A stretch of DNA of 64,000 nucleotides from Alphaproteobacteria bacterium (GTDB lineage Bacteria > Pseudomonadota > Alphaproteobacteria > UBA828). Below, piece after piece: positions 13,441-29,024 of this stretch. The stretch's first letter is position 1. Every line of letters begins with the position of its first letter. Location: contig CBDEFM010000002.1 of assembly GCA_965237415.1 (NCBI GenBank), positions 3,744,001 to 3,808,000 on the forward strand. Direction: 5' to 3'. The notes beneath the pieces were generated by a model. It worked only from the letters and a program-made list of their open reading frames with translations. It made no database searches and was not told the origin of the DNA. The translations under genes were made by a program, and so were the position numbers.

Positions 13441-15330
13441 GGAAAGCCGTCGCGACAAGGCTGGGAGAGATCGGTTCCATTGCCCAGCCGATCCATTCCC
13501 GCTGCCGCGCGCGATAGACGGCAATGCCATGGCCGTTGCGGAAGCTGCGTACCCGCGCTTCCGTCCAGGAGTTGCCTCGCCCGGTCTTCTTGCCGAGGCG
13601 GTTGAGCGTGGCCGCGATCCCGCCATCGGGCAGCTGCCTCGCCAGGCCACGAACCAGGTCGACCACCTCGGCGCTCGCCGCCCATCGATGCTGTCCCCTA
13701 CGGTTGCGTGGCACGCTCAGGCGCGTGTGGTCGCCGCCACGCCAGTGGAGAAGAAGGTCGATGCGGCCATCGGCCAGCGTGACGACGATCTCCGCGAGCA
13801 CCGACCGGAGGATGCCCTTGCGCGTCTCGGCGGTTGCATCGGGGTGCGTCCACGCCGTCGCAAGATCGTTACCCAGCGCCATCAGCCGCCCCTTCTCCTT
13901 GCACGACGGGACCTCGGGACGGGCGGCCGCGTTGGTGGCGAGCCGCTCCTCCTGCCGGCGCACCTCCGCCAGCCGGTCGTTCCACCGTCGCTCCAGCTCG
14001 GCCGCCACCAGGCGGTTGGCGGGATCGACGGTATCGTATTGGCGCTGTGCGAGTTCGGCCTCGTAGCGCGCCTGTGTCAGCGCCAGCTCCGCCTGCCGCC
14101 GGGTCTCGGTGTTGTCGCTCTCTCGCATCTCGATAGCGGCCAGCGCCGCCTCGACCCCGAGCGGGCACAGCAGTCGCAGCACGGCGTCGCCGACGGCGGC
14201 ATCCACCCGCAGGCCGCCGAAGCCGATGCAGCGCCCGGTTCCGTGGTTGACGTGTGCACCGTGGCAGCCGTAGCGGACGCAGTACCCCTTGGTCCCGCTG
14301 TAGTGGACATGCACGCGTCGGCCGCAGTGTCCGCAGCGCAGCAGGCCCGCAAGCAGCGCATCGCCTCGGCGGACGGCGCCCCTTGCCATCAGGCCCCGGC
14401 AGTTGGCGTTGTCGGCGATCAGCCGCTGGTTCCTCTCGAACTCGTCCCAGGAAACGTAGCCGTCGTGGTGATCCCGGATCAATACGTCCCACTCCGAGCG
14501 GTCGCGGCGGAAGCCGCGGGTCACGCGCTTGCGCCCGTTCTCGACGGTCACCCGGCTTTCCGTCCGGCCGAACGCGTACGCGCCGCCGTATACCGGGTTG
14601 GTCAACAGCTTGTGGACGGTGCCGTAGACCGGCGGCTTCCAGACAATGCGGCGCTCCTCGCCAACGATACTCACGGCCGGCAGCGGCACGTCCTCCTGCC
14701 TCAGCCACAGGTGAACCTGGCGGATGCTCCGGAACTCCGCGAACTTGCGGAACACGAGATCGATCGCCTCTCGCACGCGCCGATCGGGATCCTTGGCGAT
14801 CCGGTCGCGCCGGACCTTCACGTAGCCCACCGCGACGGTGAGGAACAGCTCGCCGCGGGACGCCTTCAGGCGAAGCGCTTCGAGCGAGCGCTGGCGCAGC
14901 GTCGAGAGCTCCATCTCCGACAGCGTCCCCTTCATACCGAGCAACAGCCGGTCGTTCGGCAGGCGAGGATCGTACAAGCCGTCATCGTCGCCCAGCAGAC
15001 AGCCCACAAGCGCGCAGAACTCCAGCAACGTGTGCCAGTCACGGCCGTTTCGAGCGAGCCTCGAAGCCTCCAGCGACAGCACGATGCCGACACGCCCTTC
15101 GCAGATCGACACCAGCAGCCGTTCGAAGCCCGGCCGCGACGTCCCGCCGCCGGAGCGGCCGAGATCCTCGTCGATCACCACGGGCTCGTCCCAGCCCAGG
15201 CCGCGGGCCCGATCCGCAAGTCCATACTGACGGCGGCGGCTCTCGTGATTGTTCCGCAGCTGATCCGGCGTCGACTGCCGGATGTAGACGACCGCGTCGC
15301 GCGCCAGGTGGTCAGGCGCGATCTTGTTCA
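13355..15330 (-). CDS. Large serine recombinase with its C-terminal HTH replaced by unrelated read-through
   Basis: YIRQST catalytic motif, CGHC zinc ribbon, coiled coil; diverges from copy 2 after IAVYR. Confidence 0.85.
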
Positions 15331-15497
15331 TCGCCTGCCTCCTTCTCCGTGGCCGTCCCGTCCGCCATGTCCTCGGTCGGGTTCGTCGCCGCTTCGAGCA
15401 GCAGCGCCGCAAGCATCGGGATCACCGCCCCGCGCATCGCCGGCGTCAGTGTCGGACCCGGCTCCAGCTGGTCCAGAAGGTCCCCCTGTCTTCCCAT
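15312..15497 (-). CDS. Small accessory ORF of the recombinase element
   Basis: MGRQGDLL...EAGDEQDRA, conserved in copy 2. Confidence 0.55.
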   Translation of the reverse strand: MGRQGDLLDQLEPGPTLTPAMRGAVIPMLAALLLEAATNPTEDMADGTATEKEAGDEQDRA

Positions 15498-15800
15498 GTC
15501 GCTCTCCCAAGTCCATGTGGGAGGGCAATGGTAGAACGGCGTCAAGCACCGAACGGAGGTCGCGCAAAGCGACCAGCGCGACGCGCGGCCGATCCGTCAC
15601 CGTCATCGCCGACGCGTCCGGGGAACACATCCAGGTCGGTATCTGCGCCAATGTGCCGTCCGGCTGGCGGACGACGTAGATCATGATCCCTTTGAAGCGG
15701 TGGCGCCGAACCACCTCCACGCGCTGGCCCGTCCGCGGGTGGAAGGGGTAGTGGATCTTGACCGGATCGCCCTGATAGCGGGCAGTATGTGGCTGTTCCG
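15327..15800 (-). CDS. DUF5372/Y4bD-like accessory ORF lacking its 5' start
   Basis: Frame open to the element end, includes IHYPFHPRTG upstream of the first GTG. Confidence 0.6.
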
Positions 15801-22883: not shown

Positions 22884-23908
22884 TGTTAACGGCGGAGGAA
22901 TAATGCTCCACGCGGAGCGATCGGACGGTCCGGTCGCGGCGGCGCAAAAATGCGCCAACCATGGTCCTTTGTCGGTTGCGACGAGGGGCGGGGGATGTAC
23001 GGCGTGGAGCTCTATGCGGCGGTTCGACTGGCGGTTGTCGACGAGGGTTTGAGCCATCACGAGGCGGGCCGTCGGTTCGGCATCGACCGTCGCACGGTGA
23101 AGAAGATGCTGAGCTACTCGGCGCCGCCGGGCTACCGCCGGACGAAGCCGGTCAGGCGGCCCAAGCTGGACGGGTTCACCGGCATCGTCGACGCGATCCT
23201 GGAGGCGGACACGGATCCGGATGTGCCGCGCAAGCAGCGCCACACGGCGCACCGGATCTTCGAGCGGCTGCGGGACGAGTACGGGTTCACCGGCGGCTAT
23301 ACCATCCAGACCGTGTGAAAACGTCATTGAATTCAGATTTTCGAGTAAGTCTGCTTGATTTCTGAAAAGTGCAGCCTGCTAAGTCATTGATTTCATTAAC
23401 ACTGAAAATTCAACCAATGGGCTGAAATCACATTTCGAGCGATTCTCCGACGTTTTGACACAGTCTGCATCGTGAAGGACTATGTGCGTTCCCGGCGGCA
23501 ATCGACGCGCGAGGCCTTCGTTCCACTGCATCACCCGCCGGGCCATGCCCAGGTCGACTTCGGCGAGGCGGTGGTGGAGCTGCGGGGGCAGCGGGAGAAG
23601 GTCGCCTTCTTCTGCCTGATCCTGCCCCATTCCAACGTCTGGTTCGTCAAGGCCTATCCGAGGGAGACGACCGAGGCCTTCCTCGACGGCCATGTCAGCG
23701 CCTTCGCCTTCCTCGGCGGGGTTCCGCGCTCGATCCTCTACGACAACACCACCCTTGCGGTGGCGCGGATCCTGGGCGACGGCACGCGCCGCAGGACGCA
23801 GGCGTTCTCACATCTTCAGTCGCACTACCTGTTCCGCGACCGCTTCGGCCGGCCCGGCAAAGGCAACGACAAGGGGAAGGTGGAGGCCCTGGTGAAGACG
23901 GCGCGGCG
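22884..23908 (+). mobile_element. istA: IS21 partial copy: left end plus interrupted, truncated istA
   Basis: TGTTAACGGCGGAGGAATAATG end; near-identical to 28165-29018 in reverse. Confidence 0.92.
23307..23467. mobile_element. 161-bp MITE inside istA
   Basis: TIRs CAGACCGTGTGAAAACGTC / GACGTTTTGACACAGTCTG; CATC duplication; empty site ACCATCGTG seen in the intact istA. Confidence 0.92.
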
Positions 23909-24090
23909 TGTCAACGGCGGCGAGATTATGTACCGGCGCGGCGGCGTAAAAATGTACCACGGGCTCGGTGGTAGCTTGTCCGCGTAGTCCACGGGAGGGA
24001 CCCGCGCGCGCGGGTCGACGCGCCCTGTGCGCGGCTGGCGGCGGCCCGCGCGTGGGTGGGGCCTATGGGCCCACGGGGACAAGCGGGGGG

Positions 24091-24523
24091 TTATTCGGAC
24101 GGGCGCTGGCGTCGCGATCGGCTCTGCCTGAGCCGGTAGCTGTCTGCGTTCATCTCCAGGATATGGACATGGTGGGTGATGCGGTCGAGCAGCGCGCCGG
24201 TGAGGCGCTCGCTGGCGAAGACCGTTGTCCATTCCTGGAAGGGCAGGTTTGAGGTCACGATTGTGGCGCCGTTTTCGTAGCGCCGGCTGAAGACGTCGAA
24301 CAGCAGTTCGCTTCCGGTCTGCGAGAGGGGCACGTAGCCGAGCTCGTCGACGATCAGGAGATTGACCCTGGCGAGCTGGTCCTGGAGGCGGAGGAGCCTC
24401 TTCTCGTCGCGCGCCTCGATCATCTCGTGGACCAGGTGAGAGGCGGTGGTGAAGCGCACGGAGAGGCCCTTCTGGCAGGCGGCAAGCCCGAGGGCGAGCG
24501 CGACATGCGTCTTGCCGACGCCT
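24091..24523 (-). pseudogene. istB: istB 3' part
   Basis: GVGKTH, LLIVDELG, ALLDRI. Confidence 0.92.
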
Positions 24524-24525
24524 GA

Positions 24526-24998
24526 CGGAACAGCCACACACTGCCCGATACCAGGGCGGTCCGACGAAGATCCACTACCCCTTCCACCCCCGCACGGGCC
24601 AGCGCGTGGAAGTGGTTCGGCGCCACCGCTTCAAGGGGACCATGATCTACGTCGTCCGCCAGCCGGATGGCACGCTGGCGCAGATACCGACCTGGATGTG
24701 CTTTCCAGACGCGGCGGCGATGACGGTGACGGATCAGCCGCGGATCGCGCTGGACGCCCTGCGCGACCTCCGTTCGGACATCGACGCTGTTCTACCATCG
24801 CCCTCCCGCATGGATTTGGGAGGGCGACATGGGAAGACAGGGAGAGCTGTTGGAACTACTGGAGCCGGGTCCGGCACTCACGCCGGCGATGCGAGGGGCG
24901 GTAATCCCGATACTGGCGGCGCTGCTGCTCGAAGCGGCAGCGAACCCGACGGAGGACATGGCGGACGGGACGGCCACGGAGAAGGAGGCGGGCGATGA
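24526..24998 (+). CDS. DUF5372/Y4bD-like accessory ORF whose start lies at the other end of the element
   Basis: Open frame EQPHTARYQGGPTKIHYPFHPRTGQRVEVVRR; stop overlaps the recombinase ATG. Confidence 0.65.
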
Positions 24999-25014
24999 AC
25001 AAGATCGCGCCTGA
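24829..25014 (+). CDS. Small accessory ORF
   Basis: RBS GGAGG; conserved with copy 1. Confidence 0.55.
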   Translation: MGRQGELLELLEPGPALTPAMRGAVIPILAALLLEAAANPTEDMADGTATEKEAGDEQDRA

Positions 25015-27054
25015 CCATCTGGCGCGCGAGGCGGTCGTCTACATTCGGCAGTCGACGCCGGACCAGCTGCGGCACAACCACGAGAGCCGCCGTCGTCAGT
25101 ACGGCCTTGCGGATCGGGCTCGCGGTCTGGGCTGGGACGAGCCCGTGATTATCGACGAGGATCTCGGCCGCTCTGGAGGCGGAACGTCGCGGCCGGGCTT
25201 CGATCGGCTGCTGCTGGCGATCTGCGAAGGGCGCGTCGGCATCGTGCTGTCGCTGGAGGCTTCGAGGCTCGCTCGAAACGGCCGCGACTGGCACACGCTG
25301 CTGGAGTTCTGCGCGCTTGTGGGCTGCCTGCTGGGCGACGAGGACGGCTTGTATGATCCTCGCCTGCCGAACGACCGTCTATTGCTGGGTATGAAGGGGA
25401 CGCTGTCGGAGATGGAGCTCTCGACGCTGCGCCAGCGCTCGCTCGAGGCGCTGCGCCTGAAGGCGTCCCGTGGCGAGCTATTCCTCAGCGTCGCGGTGGG
25501 CTACGTGAAGGTCCGATGCGACCGGATCGCCAAGGATCCCGACCGGCGCGTGCGTGAGGCAATCGATCTCGTGTTCCGCAAGTTCGCGGAGTTCCGGAGC
25601 ATCCGCCAGGTCCACCTCTGGCTGCGGCAGGAGGAAGTGCTGCTGCCGGCCGTCAGGATCGTTGGCAAGGAGCGCCATATTGTCTGGAAGCCGCCGGTCT
25701 ACGGCACCGTCCACAAGCTGATGACCAACCCCGTCTACGCCGGCGCGTACGCGTTTGGCCGGACGGAGAGCCGCGTGACCGTCGAGAACGGACGCAAGCG
25801 CGTCACGCGCGGCTTTCGCCGCGATCGCGCGGACTGGGACGTGTTGATCCGCGATCACCACGAAGGCTACGTTTCCTGGGACGAGTACGAGAGGAACCAG
25901 CGTCTGATCGCCGACAACGCCAACTGCGGGGCTTGATGGCAAGGGGCGCCGTGCGCCGCGGCGATGCGCTGCTCGCGGGCCTGCTGCGCTGCGGACACTG
26001 CGGCCGGCGTGTGCACGTCCACTACAGCGGCACCAAGGGGTACTGCGTCCGTTACGGCTGCCAAGGCGCGCATGTCAACCACGGCACCAGGCCGTGCATC
26101 GCCTTCGGCGGCTTGCGCGTGGATACTGCGGTCGGCGATGCAGTGCTGCGACTGCTATCTCCGCTCGGCGTCGAAGCGGCGCTGGCCGCCATCGAGACCC
26201 GTGAGAGCGACAACGCCGAGATCCGACGGCAGGCGGAGCTGGCGCTGACGCAGGCGCGCTACGAGGCCGATCTGGCACAGCGCCAATACGATGCCGTCGA
26301 TCCAGCTAACCGCCTTGTCGCGGCCGAGCTGGAGCGACGGTGGAACGACCGGCTGGCGGATGTGCGCCGGCAGGAGGAGCGGCTCGCCGCCACTGCGGCC
26401 GCCCGTCCGGAGGCACCGTCATGCGCGGAGAAACAGCGCTTGATGGCGCTGGGCGATGATCTCTCGACGGCGTGGTCGCGCCCCGATGCCACCGCCGAGA
26501 CGCGCAAGGCCATCCTGCGCGCGGTTCTGGAGGAGATCGTCGTCACGCTGGCCGATGGCTGCGTTGACCTTCTTCTCCACTGGCGTGGCGGCGACCACAC
26601 GCGTCTGAGCGTGCCGCGCAACCGTAGGGGACAGCATCGCTGGGCGGCGAGCGCCGAGGTGGTCGACCTGGTTCGCGGACTGGCGAGGCAGCTGCCGGAC
26701 GGCGCGATCGCGGCCACGCTCAACCGCCTCGGCAAGAAGACCGGGCGAGGCAACTCGTGGACGGAAGCGCGGGTGCGCACCTTCCGCAATAGCCGTGGCG
26801 TTGCCGTCTTCCGATCAGGCGAGATGGCGGAGCGGGGCGAGCTGACGCTGACCGATGCCGCCGCACGGCTCGGCATCAGCAAGATGACGGTGCTGCGGTT
26901 GATTGCGGGCGGCACAATCGACGCCACGCAGGTGTGCAAGGGAGGGCCATGGGCCATCCCGGAGGCGCTGATAGACGCCCTGTACGGCACTGACCTGCGC
27001 CAATCGCGCCCGCTAACAGCCGATCCGAACCAGGAACAGCTGGATTTTCAATAA
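24995..27054 (+). pseudogene. Large serine recombinase with a 1-bp frameshift near 25928
   Basis: AACTGCGGGGCTTGATG versus AACTGCCGGGGCCTGATG in copy 1; C-terminal HTH and terminal QLDFQ. Confidence 0.9.
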
Positions 27055-27086
27055 CGTAGCGAGGTGTGCATTATGCACTCGGACTC

Positions 27087-27418
27087 GAGGGCCCGAGCAG
27101 GATCGCGTTCTCGCGCCGCTCGATCCACTCGCAGCGCGCCAACTCCAGCACCTGCGCCTTGTTCAGCGCGGGGATGGCCTTGAAGTCGAAGCTGTCGAGG
27201 CTCTTGGCGACCGGGAACTTCGCCGCCTTGATGCGCCGCTCGACCATGCGCCGTTCGCGATCGATCAGTTCCAGCTCCACCAGCCGGGCCAGGAACTGAA
27301 CATGATCCAGGGCCTCGGCCGCGCACTGGCGCGCCAGTTTCTCGTACTCGCGCAGAAAGGTCGGCAGCTTCAGCTTCTTCAGATGATGCTCGAGCAGGAT
27401 GCGCGGCGCCTCAGCCAT
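27087..27418 (-). pseudogene. istB: istB 5' part
   Basis: LKKLKLP...RRIKAAKFP...ENAILLGPS. Confidence 0.92.
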
Positions 27419-28907
27419 GGCCGGCGGCCAGCAGGGTGGCGTAATCGGCGCTACGGGTGGCGGCGACGAAGGGCTGGGGGAGGTGCGGATAGCGTGTCAG
27501 GTCGAGACGGGCCGGCCGCTTCTCGATGCGCGCCAGCAGCAGGTGCTTGACCGCATCGAAGCCGATCACGCGCCGCTTCACCGCGTCCTGCACCGCGGCC
27601 GTCACCTGGCGCTCCGGAAAGTCCTCCAGCAGGCGCAGCACCTGGATGTATTCGCGCTTGCCGCGCGGCCCGAAGCGGGCTTCGAGGAGGCGGCGCAGCG
27701 TGTCGAAGGCCGGATCGAGCTTCCACCCCCGCAGCGGCGCCGCCTGGTCCAGGGCGCCCGGCTTCCTCTCCAGCAACGACAGATAGTGCAGCGGGTCGTA
27801 GACGACGTCGCCGCGGACATAGGAGCGCCTATGGCGGGCGACGATCTCGGCGCCGAGCGCGATCTCGACCCGGTCGACATAGCCCTTGATCGTCACCTTC
27901 TTGTGGGCGTGCACCGCCGGCGCCGAGTAGTCCACCAACCGGTAGCGCACCAGGGCCGTCGAGGAGACCTGGCCCGGCACATGCTCGCAGGCCTCGAAGG
28001 GAGAAGCCGGCAGATCGCGCAGGGCGTCGAGATCGGCGAGCAGCGCCGCCGCCTGCTCCCCTGCCTCCAGCGCGTCGAGCCGCTCCAGGCACCGAGCCAT
28101 CAGCCGCTCGTTCAGGACCGACAGGTCATGCACCTTCGGGATCGGAACCATGAACCGGCGCCGCGCCGTCTTCACCAGGGCCTCGACCTTGCCCTTGTCG
28201 TTGCCCTTGCCGGGCCGGCCGAAGCGGTCGCGGAACAGGTAGTGCGACTGAAGATGTGAGAACGCCTGCGTCCTGCGGCGCGTGCCGTCCCCCAGGATCC
28301 GCGCCACCGCAAGGGTGGTGTTGTCGTAGAGGATCGAGCGCGGAACCCCGCCGAGGAAGGCGAAGGCGCTGACATGGCCGTCGAGGAAGGCCTCGGTCGT
28401 CTCCCTCGGATAGGCCTTGACGAACCAGACGTTGGAATGGGGCAGGATCAGGCAGAAGAAGGCAACCTTCTCCCGCCTGCCTCCGACCTCGACCGTCGCC
28501 TCGCCGAAGTCGACCTGGGCATGGCCCGGCGGGTGATGCAGTGGAACGAAGGCCTCGCGCGTCGATTGCCGCCGGGAACGCACATAGTCCTTCACGATGG
28601 TGTAGCCGCCGGTGAACCCGTGCTCGTCCCGTAGCCGCTCGAAGATCCGATGCGCCGTGTGACGCTGCTTGCGCGGCACGTCCGGATCCGTGTCCGCCTC
28701 CAGGATCGCGTCGACGATGCCGGTGAACCCGTCCAGCTTGGGCCGCCTGACCGGCTTCGTCCGGCGGTAGCCCGGCGGTGCCGAGTAGCTCAGCATCTTC
28801 TTCACCGTCCGGCGGTCGATGCCGAACCGCCGGCCCGCCTCGTGATGGCTCAGACCCTCGTCGACAACCGCCAGTCGAACCGCCGCATAGAGCTCCACGC
28901 CGTACAT
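27411..28907 (-). CDS. istA: IS21 transposase IstA
   Basis: AQVDFG, LYDN, KGKVE. Confidence 0.95.
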   Translation of the reverse strand: MYGVELYAAVRLAVVDEGLSHHEAGRRFGIDRRTVKKMLSYSAPPGYRRTKPVRRPKLDGFTGIVDAILEADTDPDVPRKQRHTAHRIFERLRDEHGFTGGYTIVKDYVRSRRQSTREAFVPLHHPPGHAQVDFGEATVEVGGRREKVAFFCLILPHSNVWFVKAYPRETTEAFLDGHVSAFAFLGGVPRSILYDNTTLAVARILGDGTRRRTQAFSHLQSHYLFRDRFGRPGKGNDKGKVEALVKTARRRFMVPIPKVHDLSVLNERLMARCLERLDALEAGEQAAALLADLDALRDLPASPFEACEHVPGQVSSTALVRYRLVDYSAPAVHAHKKVTIKGYVDRVEIALGAEIVARHRRSYVRGDVVYDPLHYLSLLERKPGALDQAAPLRGWKLDPAFDTLRRLLEARFGPRGKREYIQVLRLLEDFPERQVTAAVQDAVKRRVIGFDAVKHLLLARIEKRPARLDLTRYPHLPQPFVAATRSADYATLLAAGHG

Positions 28908-29024
28908 CTCCTGCCCCTCGTCGCAACCGACAAGGGACCATGAGTGGCACAATTTTGCGCCGCCGCGACCGGACCGTCCGGTCGCTCCGCGTGGAGCATT
29001 ATTCCTCCGCCGTTAACAGGGGAG

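Follow-up and report, generated by a model that had tools for sequence, protein, structure and literature searches.

A DUF5372 gene that appears to be completed only in the circular form of a small serine-recombinase element

A gene apparently divided between the two ends of a mobile element

The window considered here is a 64,000-nucleotide stretch of an alphaproteobacterial genome (lineage UBA828; assembly GCA_965237415.1, contig CBDEFM010000002.1, positions 3,744,001 to 3,808,000). It harbours a mobile element whose body comprises 2561 nt (24526-27086, plus strand; 2563 nt with one GA) and which carries three genes: a reading frame of the DUF5372 family, here called open reading frame 1 (ORF1), a small overlapping ORF2, and the gene of a large serine recombinase (LSR). 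In the integrated element, ORF1 has no start codon; a circle made by joining the two element ends would supply one, together with a ribosome-binding site (RBS). The reading that we regard as probable is that ORF1 encodes a recombinase cofactor specific to the circular state, and that the division of its gene serves as an expression switch favouring fast re-integration.

The recombinase gene ends with a TAA stop codon at 27052-27054. It is followed on the plus strand by the Shine-Dalgarno-like sequence GAGGTG (27061-27066) and, 6 nt further on, by an ATG (27073-27075), the proposed start of ORF1 in the circle. The same ATG closes the right half-site GTGCATTATG (27066-27075), and 11 nt (27076-27086) separate it from the GA at which the element ends. 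The start-less ORF1 frame lies at the opposite end (24525-24998, plus strand), where it matches Pfam family PF17342 and shows a coding signature to about 24810-24830. When the two ends are joined in silico through one GA, the ATG falls in frame with ...HTARYQ...IHYPFHP, and the frame stays open to the TGA at 24996-24998, giving 5 + 157 = 162 codons. The right end thus contributes the RBS, the ATG, and four and two-thirds codons, all located behind the recombinase stop. The initial annotation had proposed this junction, and the order of GAGGTG, ATG and GA as well as the length of the joined frame were confirmed. The 162-residue protein that it deduced is borne out as an open frame, but the last third (about 24830-24998) has no coding signature and overlaps ORF2.

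In the integrated state, the two parts of the gene are 2.5 kb apart. None of the 15 codons at 24525-24569 is ATG, GTG or TTG. They lead up to the IHYPFHP motif (24570-24590, plus strand), at which the DUF5372 profile match begins and in which Y, H and P are invariant. The in-frame left flank offers no start before a stop 24 codons upstream either, in agreement with the earlier claim that the integrated element holds no start upstream of YPFHP. The first start listed for this frame after the preceding stop is the GTG at 24606. It cannot explain the gene, as the most conserved residues of the family (Y18, H21, P22 and G25 in alignment A2) lie upstream of it, and codon periodicity is already present from about 24556 and in the codons at 24546-24557. 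At the other end, the integrated RBS and ATG open a 37-codon frame that runs into the antisense istB gene (27073-27186) and is probably a meaningless by-product.

The match of ORF1 to PF17342 is marginal, with 26.4 bits against a gathering cut-off of 25, and covers profile positions 1-43 of 78 (residues 16-58). The nearest Atlas clusters of ORF1 are DUF5372, at 0.94. For two further DUF5372 copies of this genome, the profile scores are 82 and 75 bits.

Element boundaries and recombinase

The insertion interrupts an IS21 istB gene in its Walker A codons, in antisense orientation, and GA is present at each junction (24524-24525 and 27087-27088, plus strand). This dinucleotide is the only sequence common to both junctions. 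The two flanks are the halves of one minus-strand istB, broken as ...ILLGPS / GVGKT.... The C-terminal half at attL (24091-24523, minus strand) begins at the Walker A residues GVGKT and matches positions 100-236 of the Pfam profile IstB_IS21 (E 1.4e-50; match spanning 24091-24537). The N-terminal half at attR (27089-27418, minus strand) ends with ...ILLGPS and matches positions 2-101 (E 2.7e-22; match spanning 27071-27418). Contigs from two public sequencing runs contain the empty istB site: they join 24523 to 27087 and skip exactly 2563 nt, with a 2-nt ambiguity at the joint that corresponds to the GA. This arrangement fits the 2-bp crossover of a serine recombinase. Three full copies of the element occur in the genome at 100% identity, and homologous elements have lengths of 2558-2597 nt. 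The core of the left (P') arm (24526-24546, plus strand) consists, in 54 aligned distinct left ends, of 11 variable nt followed by the half-site CAC ACT GCC C, which is the reverse complement of the right-arm motif G.GCA..RTG.

The LSR gene (24995-27054, plus strand) encodes 686 aa when intact, with the Pfam domains Resolvase (PF00239, E 1.6e-22), Recombinase (PF07508, E 3.4e-12) and Zn_ribbon_recom (PF13408, E 5.9e-9). The Pfam search also placed an HTH_17 domain at the C-terminus, and DUF4368 gave no match at E values up to 0.1. An AlphaFold2 (AF2) model of the C-terminal half shows a coiled-coil hairpin after the zinc ribbon, with helices at 79-120 and 127-156 and blocks of predicted local confidence (pLDDT) of up to 91. 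In the window, one C is absent after 25926, which splits the recombinase into two frames (24995-25936 and 25933-27054). The recombinase stop at 27054 given by the initial annotation holds. All three identical genome copies share the deletion. In homologs, the LSR is a single frame, including a 686-aa coding sequence (CDS) in an Azospirillum plasmid. Because the missing C is present in a second, 91% identical copy in the window, in five other homologs, in contigs of runs X2 and X4 at full depth and in part of those of X1, the frameshift is either an assembly error or a mutation private to the strain. A promoter and terminator scan of the linear interval 24300-27300, which represents the integrated arrangement only, returned 0 and 0 sites.

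The junction in related elements

Relatives were gathered through the DUF5372 protein only, yielding 36 loci from species genomes and 61 from metagenomes. They come from Alpha- and Gammaproteobacteria, Acidobacteriota (Vicinamibacterales, Bryobacterales), Thermodesulfobacteriota and Binatia. As samples they are not independent, and p-values given below overstate the evidence. Both ends were available for 36 loci, of which 35 were usable after L072, whose left end is cut by the contig start, had been dropped. Five other loci were left out: L119 (genome G040) because no matching dinucleotide could be set, L151 and L152 (G589) because the right end was not recovered, L138 because the recombinase is largely missing, and L139 because of an internal deletion, though it has a TC/TC crossover.

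For each of the 35 usable loci (29 distinct), the in-silico circle brings the right-end start into the reading frame of DUF5372, and the ORF1 frame is open in all of them. The joined flanks reconstitute a Walker A motif (G....GK[ST] on the opposite strand) in 29 of 36 loci. The left ends (74, of which 54 are distinct) follow one plan: an antisense Walker A flank, the dinucleotide, 11 variable nt, and CAY ACT GCC CGN TAY CAR. For the right ends, all LSR 3' ends followed by 45 nt or more were taken regardless of motif (45 ends; 4 more are cut by contig ends). The start codon stands at the same fixed place in each, as ATG in 44 and as GTG in one (L058), with an AGGTG-like run ahead of it. The junction dinucleotides are equal in 26 of 36 loci. 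They differ in the other 10 (L030, L031, L045, L047, L052, L061, L076, L082, L096 and the unusable L072), which may reflect recombination between copies in different targets, a tolerated mismatch or later mutation.

The same plan and phase are kept in a copy on plasmid p1 of Azospirillum sp. TSA2s (NZ_CP039651.1). The gene table of that record, incomplete by design, lists ORF2 (59 aa, hypothetical) and the 686-aa recombinase, and no CDS in the DUF5372 frame. Phase is also kept in three more distant clades of DUF5372-LSR elements. L120 (G042:C10:159600-164900) has a TT/TT crossover and lies in an IS66-family transposase gene just ahead of its C-terminal element, which forms the flank (Pfam E 5.9e-20). 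A further distant clade has extra genes between DUF5372 and the LSR and is represented by the genome of the window itself (C2:2282691, TG/TG), by G226 (TT/TT) and by G625 (3 copies, TT/TT). This second type occurs twice in the own genome (C2:2282691-2282921, plus strand, and C2:3091839-3092069, minus strand; the 82- and 75-bit matches mentioned above), with about 1 kb of extra genes before the recombinase. All these distant elements show the 11+2+11 plan and a right-end GAGGTG..ATG in frame with the DUF5372 ORF.

Evidence for a start at the junction

For a single element, the chance of a matching phase is 1 in 3, as the initial annotation had calculated, and conservation of the phase is what it had asked of homologs. 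The most serious competing explanation, which we hold to be unlikely, makes the junction frame a by-product of att-site geometry. According to it, GAGGTG...ATG is nothing but the binding site of the right arm, the 24-nt spacing is a multiple of three by chance, and translation of DUF5372 begins in the integrated element, whether at a boundary GTG or TTG, at a near-cognate codon or internally. The observations that distinguish between the two explanations lie upstream of the IHYPFHP motif and in the right arm.

Codon-position changes were counted by parsimony on a tree built from the DUF5372 domain. In the R-Y-Q-G codons at 24546-24557, positions 1, 2 and 3 underwent 10, 23 and 47 changes (binomial p 2.8e-6 against one third), and in the seven HTARYQG codons 10, 27 and 51. 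The domain itself, as a control, gave 472, 392 and 860 (80 domain codons, 56 distinct sequences, several phyla). Because of this third-position excess, the stretch upstream of IHYPFHP, four codons from the boundary, is judged to evolve like coding sequence. Its length changes also respect the frame: of 54 distinct cases, 41 have 33 nt and 13 have 30 nt between the His block and the motif, and none departs from the frame. Between the ATG and IHY, a stop interrupts the junction frame in 0 of 28 distinct junctions, whereas the other two frames are interrupted in 24 and 12 of them. These observations count against the by-product explanation. Moreover, from the boundary to IHY an in-frame ATG, GTG or TTG is lacking altogether in 37 of 53 distinct left ends, which speaks against a start within the integrated element.

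The right arm shows a corresponding asymmetry. Over 34 distinct right ends, the five positions of AGGTG changed 0, 0, 2, 0 and 0 times. The AGGT lies 22-25 nt from the crossover, and the mirrored positions in the left arm changed 6, 12, 4 and 6 times (56 sequences). As AGGT is kept in the right arm only, this arm carries a constraint beyond half-site symmetry. A GAGGTG six nt ahead of an ATG looks like a Shine-Dalgarno site. In L077 and L115, the half-site has changed (GGGTA for GTGCA), but GAGGTG and ATG have been kept. They are likewise kept in the distant clade with extra genes, where the mirrored left triplet is TTA or TCA, so that by this comparison the ATG there is not a product of symmetry.

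Points that weigh against a junction-started gene

A number of observations count against this reading, and several of them are what the by-product explanation would predict. The distances between ATG, 11 nt, dinucleotide, 11 nt and CAY are constant across relatives. As this 11+2+11 spacing is fixed, the phase cannot vary, and its constancy adds little and is not independent evidence. In the clade of the window, the ATG is part of an inverted-repeat half-site, presumably one bound by the recombinase: the left-arm block, in reverse complement GGCAGTATG, mirrors the right-arm GTGCAYYATG (G.GCA..ATG), so that ATG and left-arm CAT face each other at equal distance from the crossover. The invariance of the ATG in this clade therefore requires no start-codon function. 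No third-position excess was found in the 11 nt to the left or to the right of the crossover (16/39/22 changes on the left, 16/25/18 in the codons after the ATG). A possible alternative start exists in some relatives, with a GTG or TTG at the boundary codon in 14 of 53 distinct left ends, a GTG two codons ahead of IHY in 3 of 53, and a GTG directly before THPFHP in three genomes of the distant clade. Three database proteins (P0002, P0003 and P0010) are called with a start 1-2 codons before IHY.

The circle itself did not turn up where it was sought. The initial annotation had suggested a search for the junction sequence; none was found in the 118 loci by a regular expression plus a terminal-overlap test in small contigs, in IMG/VR by a degenerate two-arm pattern, or in the own genome and 4 element-rich genomes (0 of 5) by a pattern of the two-arm type. 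No back-joining joint occurs among the joints listed for the contigs of runs X1, X2, X4 and X18, and contigs drop rare forms. The recombinase frameshift, if real, leaves the copy in the window unable to excise by itself. Finally, a cofactor bound at the site of a recombination directionality factor (RDF; see below) would, by analogy with the classical cases, inhibit integration, which fits poorly with a product specific to the circle.

Less probable explanations and the standing of the proposed switch

Conceivably, the flank provides starts from which ORF1 is translated while integrated, as the target always consists of antisense Walker A codons and the flank is semi-conserved. We judge this very unlikely. 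Upstream starts have been called for database proteins P0004, P0006, P0008 and P0012, but their N-terminal extensions are mutually unrelated. No in-frame start precedes the stop in 48 of 57 distinct flanks; the other 9 have an ATG, GTG or TTG, at varying distances, and the ATG that the conserved GKTH codons contain is out of frame. No in-frame start that is conserved across most insertion flanks and accompanied by an RBS was found. A 529-nt contig from metatranscriptome X18, corresponding to 24461-24989, spans attL, with one end in an istB flank whose sequence differs and the other immediately ahead of the recombinase start. Its origin may be either a transcript entering from the flank or carried-over DNA, and it was not used as evidence.

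That the DUF5372 frame is a decaying remnant encoding no functional protein in the clade of the window is the least probable explanation, since the missing start of the window copy, the marginal Pfam score with half of the profile matched, and the unconstrained frame tail are outweighed by the third-position excess across the 80 domain codons, 19 invariant alignment columns, a frame that is open in every usable locus, the confidently modelled recombinase interface described below, and a lack of frequent stops or frameshifts in the domain across relatives.

The state-dependent switch suggested by the initial annotation thus gains support, as neither of the two findings named beforehand as speaking against it, a phase that varies among homologs or initiation at the GTG at 24606, was obtained.

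ORF2 and the ORF1 tail

ORF2 (24829-25014, plus strand, +1 frame) encodes 61 aa and has its own GGGAGGG and ATG. It shares sequence with the ORF1 tail and, over 20 nt, with the beginning of the recombinase gene. The protein is conserved in relatives across phyla, likewise with its own start and a purine-rich run ahead of it, and is possibly a second cofactor, a candidate excision factor. Neither ORF1 nor ORF2 has a family in NCBIfam or PHROGs. Third-position periodicity is that of frame 0 between about 24556 and about 24810, then that of the ORF2 frame from 24826-24870 and that of the recombinase frame from about 25006. The ORF1 tail (about 24830-24998) accordingly has no coding signature in frame 0 where it overlaps the conserved ORF2. 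Nevertheless, its frame stays free of stops until it meets the LSR start, with which it overlaps as ATGA or GTGA in 43 of the 49 loci that have a placeable start (57 distinct examined). Because an unconstrained tail is kept open as far as this overlap, we infer selection for ribosomes that, having initiated at the junction, run on to the start of the recombinase; this would amount to translational coupling. The fused ORF1-ORF2 forms P0004 and P0011 may be indel variants; a programmed frameshift was considered as well.

A predicted complex of the DUF5372 domain and the recombinase

Literature searches found nothing on DUF5372. The AF2 model of the domain has a mean pLDDT of 64.4. A Foldseek search of this model against the PDB gave no match at E <= 0.001 and weak Tudor/SH3-like resemblances only. 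In complex with the C-terminal half of the LSR, the domain reached a model score of 0.77, while the best of 3 controls scored 0.00. The mark applied to such scores was reached by 58 of 80 solved complexes and by 2 of 110 mismatched pairs, counts that are rough since custom alignments were used. The model runs agreed in at least 84% of contacts, with a partner pLDDT of at least 76. No solved relative of the C-terminal part of the LSR was found by sequence, and the score is therefore unlikely to stem from the memory of the model.

The modelled interface comprises residues 20-26, 74-90, 159-198 and 214-224 of the C-terminal half; on ORF1, residues 66-90 belong to it. In the AF2 model, these correspond to the zinc ribbon and the base of the helical hairpin (79-120/127-156). 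The prediction supports binding of the DUF5372 domain to the LSR at the junction of zinc domain and coiled coil. In serine integrases, the junction of DBD2 and the coiled coil is the hotspot for RDFs, according to the excerpts of PMC11795197 and PMC5814800 used here, and the predicted ORF1 interface would coincide with this region. The guess of the initial annotation that ORF1 might be a directionality factor fits the modelled binding, itself a prediction.

Targets and genomic surroundings

Members of the family (loci L022-L118) invariably lie antisense within the codons for the Walker A motif (GPxGxGK[ST]) of AAA+/P-loop genes. Most of the genes hit are IstB-like and belong to IS21-type elements. 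In metagenome-assembled genomes (MAGs) of Vicinamibacterales (L029, L035, L037), the target is a Lon protease gene (Pfam AAA, Lon_lid, Lon_C), which would be split by the insertion. Together with the IS66 target of L120, it seems that different DUF5372-LSR clades prey on different transposon genes. Literature searches, in which supplements were not covered, found no report on elements inserting into Walker A codons; Supplementary Fig. 1e of PMC10083194 might show such a motif.

In the genome of the window, the three identical copies share one istB context and may have been copied together with IS21. The 91% identical copy (13516-15800, minus strand) lies in the Walker A codons of a different istB, with an intact left end and a truncated right end. 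A 99% identical fragment of the element occurs in a third IstB-like gene, along with other fragments. The element in the window is surrounded by an IS21 nest: a broken istA at about 22950-23987 (plus strand) faces the interrupted istB, upstream of which lies a full istA (27411-28952, minus strand). Run depth on the IS21 flanks is 10-40 times that of the element, implying many IS21 copies without an insert.

Comparison with known systems

The principles of state-dependent expression through a circle joint and of genes split by attP are already known. The ends of Tn4451 carry a GA dinucleotide; targeting of Walker A codons has, to our knowledge, not been reported for this transposon. In Tn4451 and Tn4453, expression of the TnpX recombinase depends on a promoter formed at the circle joint, according to a study listed among the references of PMC13023037. 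The element described here resembles them as a small LSR-driven element that would move via a circle, with joint-dependent expression and, in the window copy, a GA crossover. Unlike in Tn4451, where the joint forms the promoter of the recombinase, here an accessory gene would receive its RBS, start and first few codons from the joint. The LSR also differs from TnpX in that it has no DUF4368 match and carries a C-terminal HTH_17.

Junction promoters are also formed in the circles of insertion sequences (ISs) such as IS911, IS2 and IS30. In excised integrative and conjugative elements (ICEs), promoters read across attP, for example Pcirc of ICEclc and P3'end of ICEKp1 (PMC13023037, in excerpt). 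These ICE and IS joint promoters likewise lead to state-dependent expression of integration functions from the circle, but they act on transcription only and build no reading frame across the joint.

Integrases of archaeal SSV-type elements have attP inside the integrase ORF, according to part of PMC7253208. As would be the case for ORF1, the gene is whole only in the circle and is split by integration. Unlike the LSR, those integrases are archaeal tyrosine recombinases, and the integrase itself is cut in its body. Here, the LSR lies wholly inside the element, and the accessory ORF1 loses only its initiation region.

In the integration-dependent immunity of mycobacteriophages, attP lies inside the repressor gene, and the product differs between the two states. 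The initial annotation had pointed to such phages, and the likeness is an analogy without kinship: in the phages, it is the 3' end of the gene that is exchanged, both forms are translated, the integrase is a tyrosine integrase, and phages are involved rather than a 2.5-kb element.

With the RDFs of serine integrases, ORF1 would share the property of a small cofactor modelled on the same region of the recombinase, but there is no kinship in sequence or fold. Phage RDFs are made from the integrated prophage and drive excision, whereas ORF1 seems makeable only after excision, so that its effect may be the opposite.

Multi-targeting LSRs, whose close relatives integrate in many genes via a shared motif, have been described by Durrant et al. 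2022 (PMC10083194). This clade is TndX-like, with DUF4368 in 63%, as given in the same excerpts. Unlike the multi-targeting TndX/TnpX-like clade, the LSR reported here has HTH_17 instead of DUF4368. The passages of PMC10083194 available to us make no mention of DUF5372 or of a junction-spanning gene. Literature searches found no reading frame built across the attP of a serine recombinase, and the merging of the initiation region of a cofactor gene with a recombinase half-site is new as far as these searches reach.

Proposed mechanism and significance

The element is a minimal, transposon-like unit driven by its LSR, which inserts it through a 2-bp crossover into antisense Walker A codons. Its attP would lie inside its first gene, so that upon integration ORF1 would be left without a start while ORF2 and the recombinase would retain their own RBSs. 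Recombination of attL with attR would generate a circle in which RBS, ATG and ORF1 form one continuous gene. Translation from the circle would then yield the ORF1 protein, predicted to grip the recombinase at the junction of zinc domain and coiled coil, and the ribosomes translating ORF1 would be handed to the recombinase gene via the ATGA overlap. The product could favour rapid re-integration of the non-replicating circle, and integration would split ORF1 again and reset the switch. By analogy with the TnpX joint promoter, Pcirc, P3'end and the split SSV integrases, we expect the circle-specific product to favour integration. The opposite effect, that of a classical RDF, would need a different life-cycle logic.

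A more far-reaching version, which we offer tentatively and regard as doubtful in its entirety, holds that all DUF5372 genes straddle attP. Their products would be "inverse" directionality factors that act toward integration or block re-excision, and translation of the tail would feed the recombinase while overriding ORF2 as the excision factor. The whole would constitute a self-resetting toggle at the protein level, in elements that prey on istB, IS66 tnpC and Lon genes.

Serine integrases are prized because a cofactor sets their directionality, and the choice between excision and integration in transposon-like serine recombinases is poorly understood. If the proposed reading is true, the physical state of the DNA decides whether the cofactor gene exists at all. 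The logic would be compact, with about 30 nt of an att site acting as RBS, start codon and recombinase half-site, and it would be attractive for synthetic recombinase switches. The proposal is also the first functional hypothesis for the DUF5372 family, and it concerns a group of elements that inactivates the helper genes of other transposons and, in some MAGs, Lon genes.

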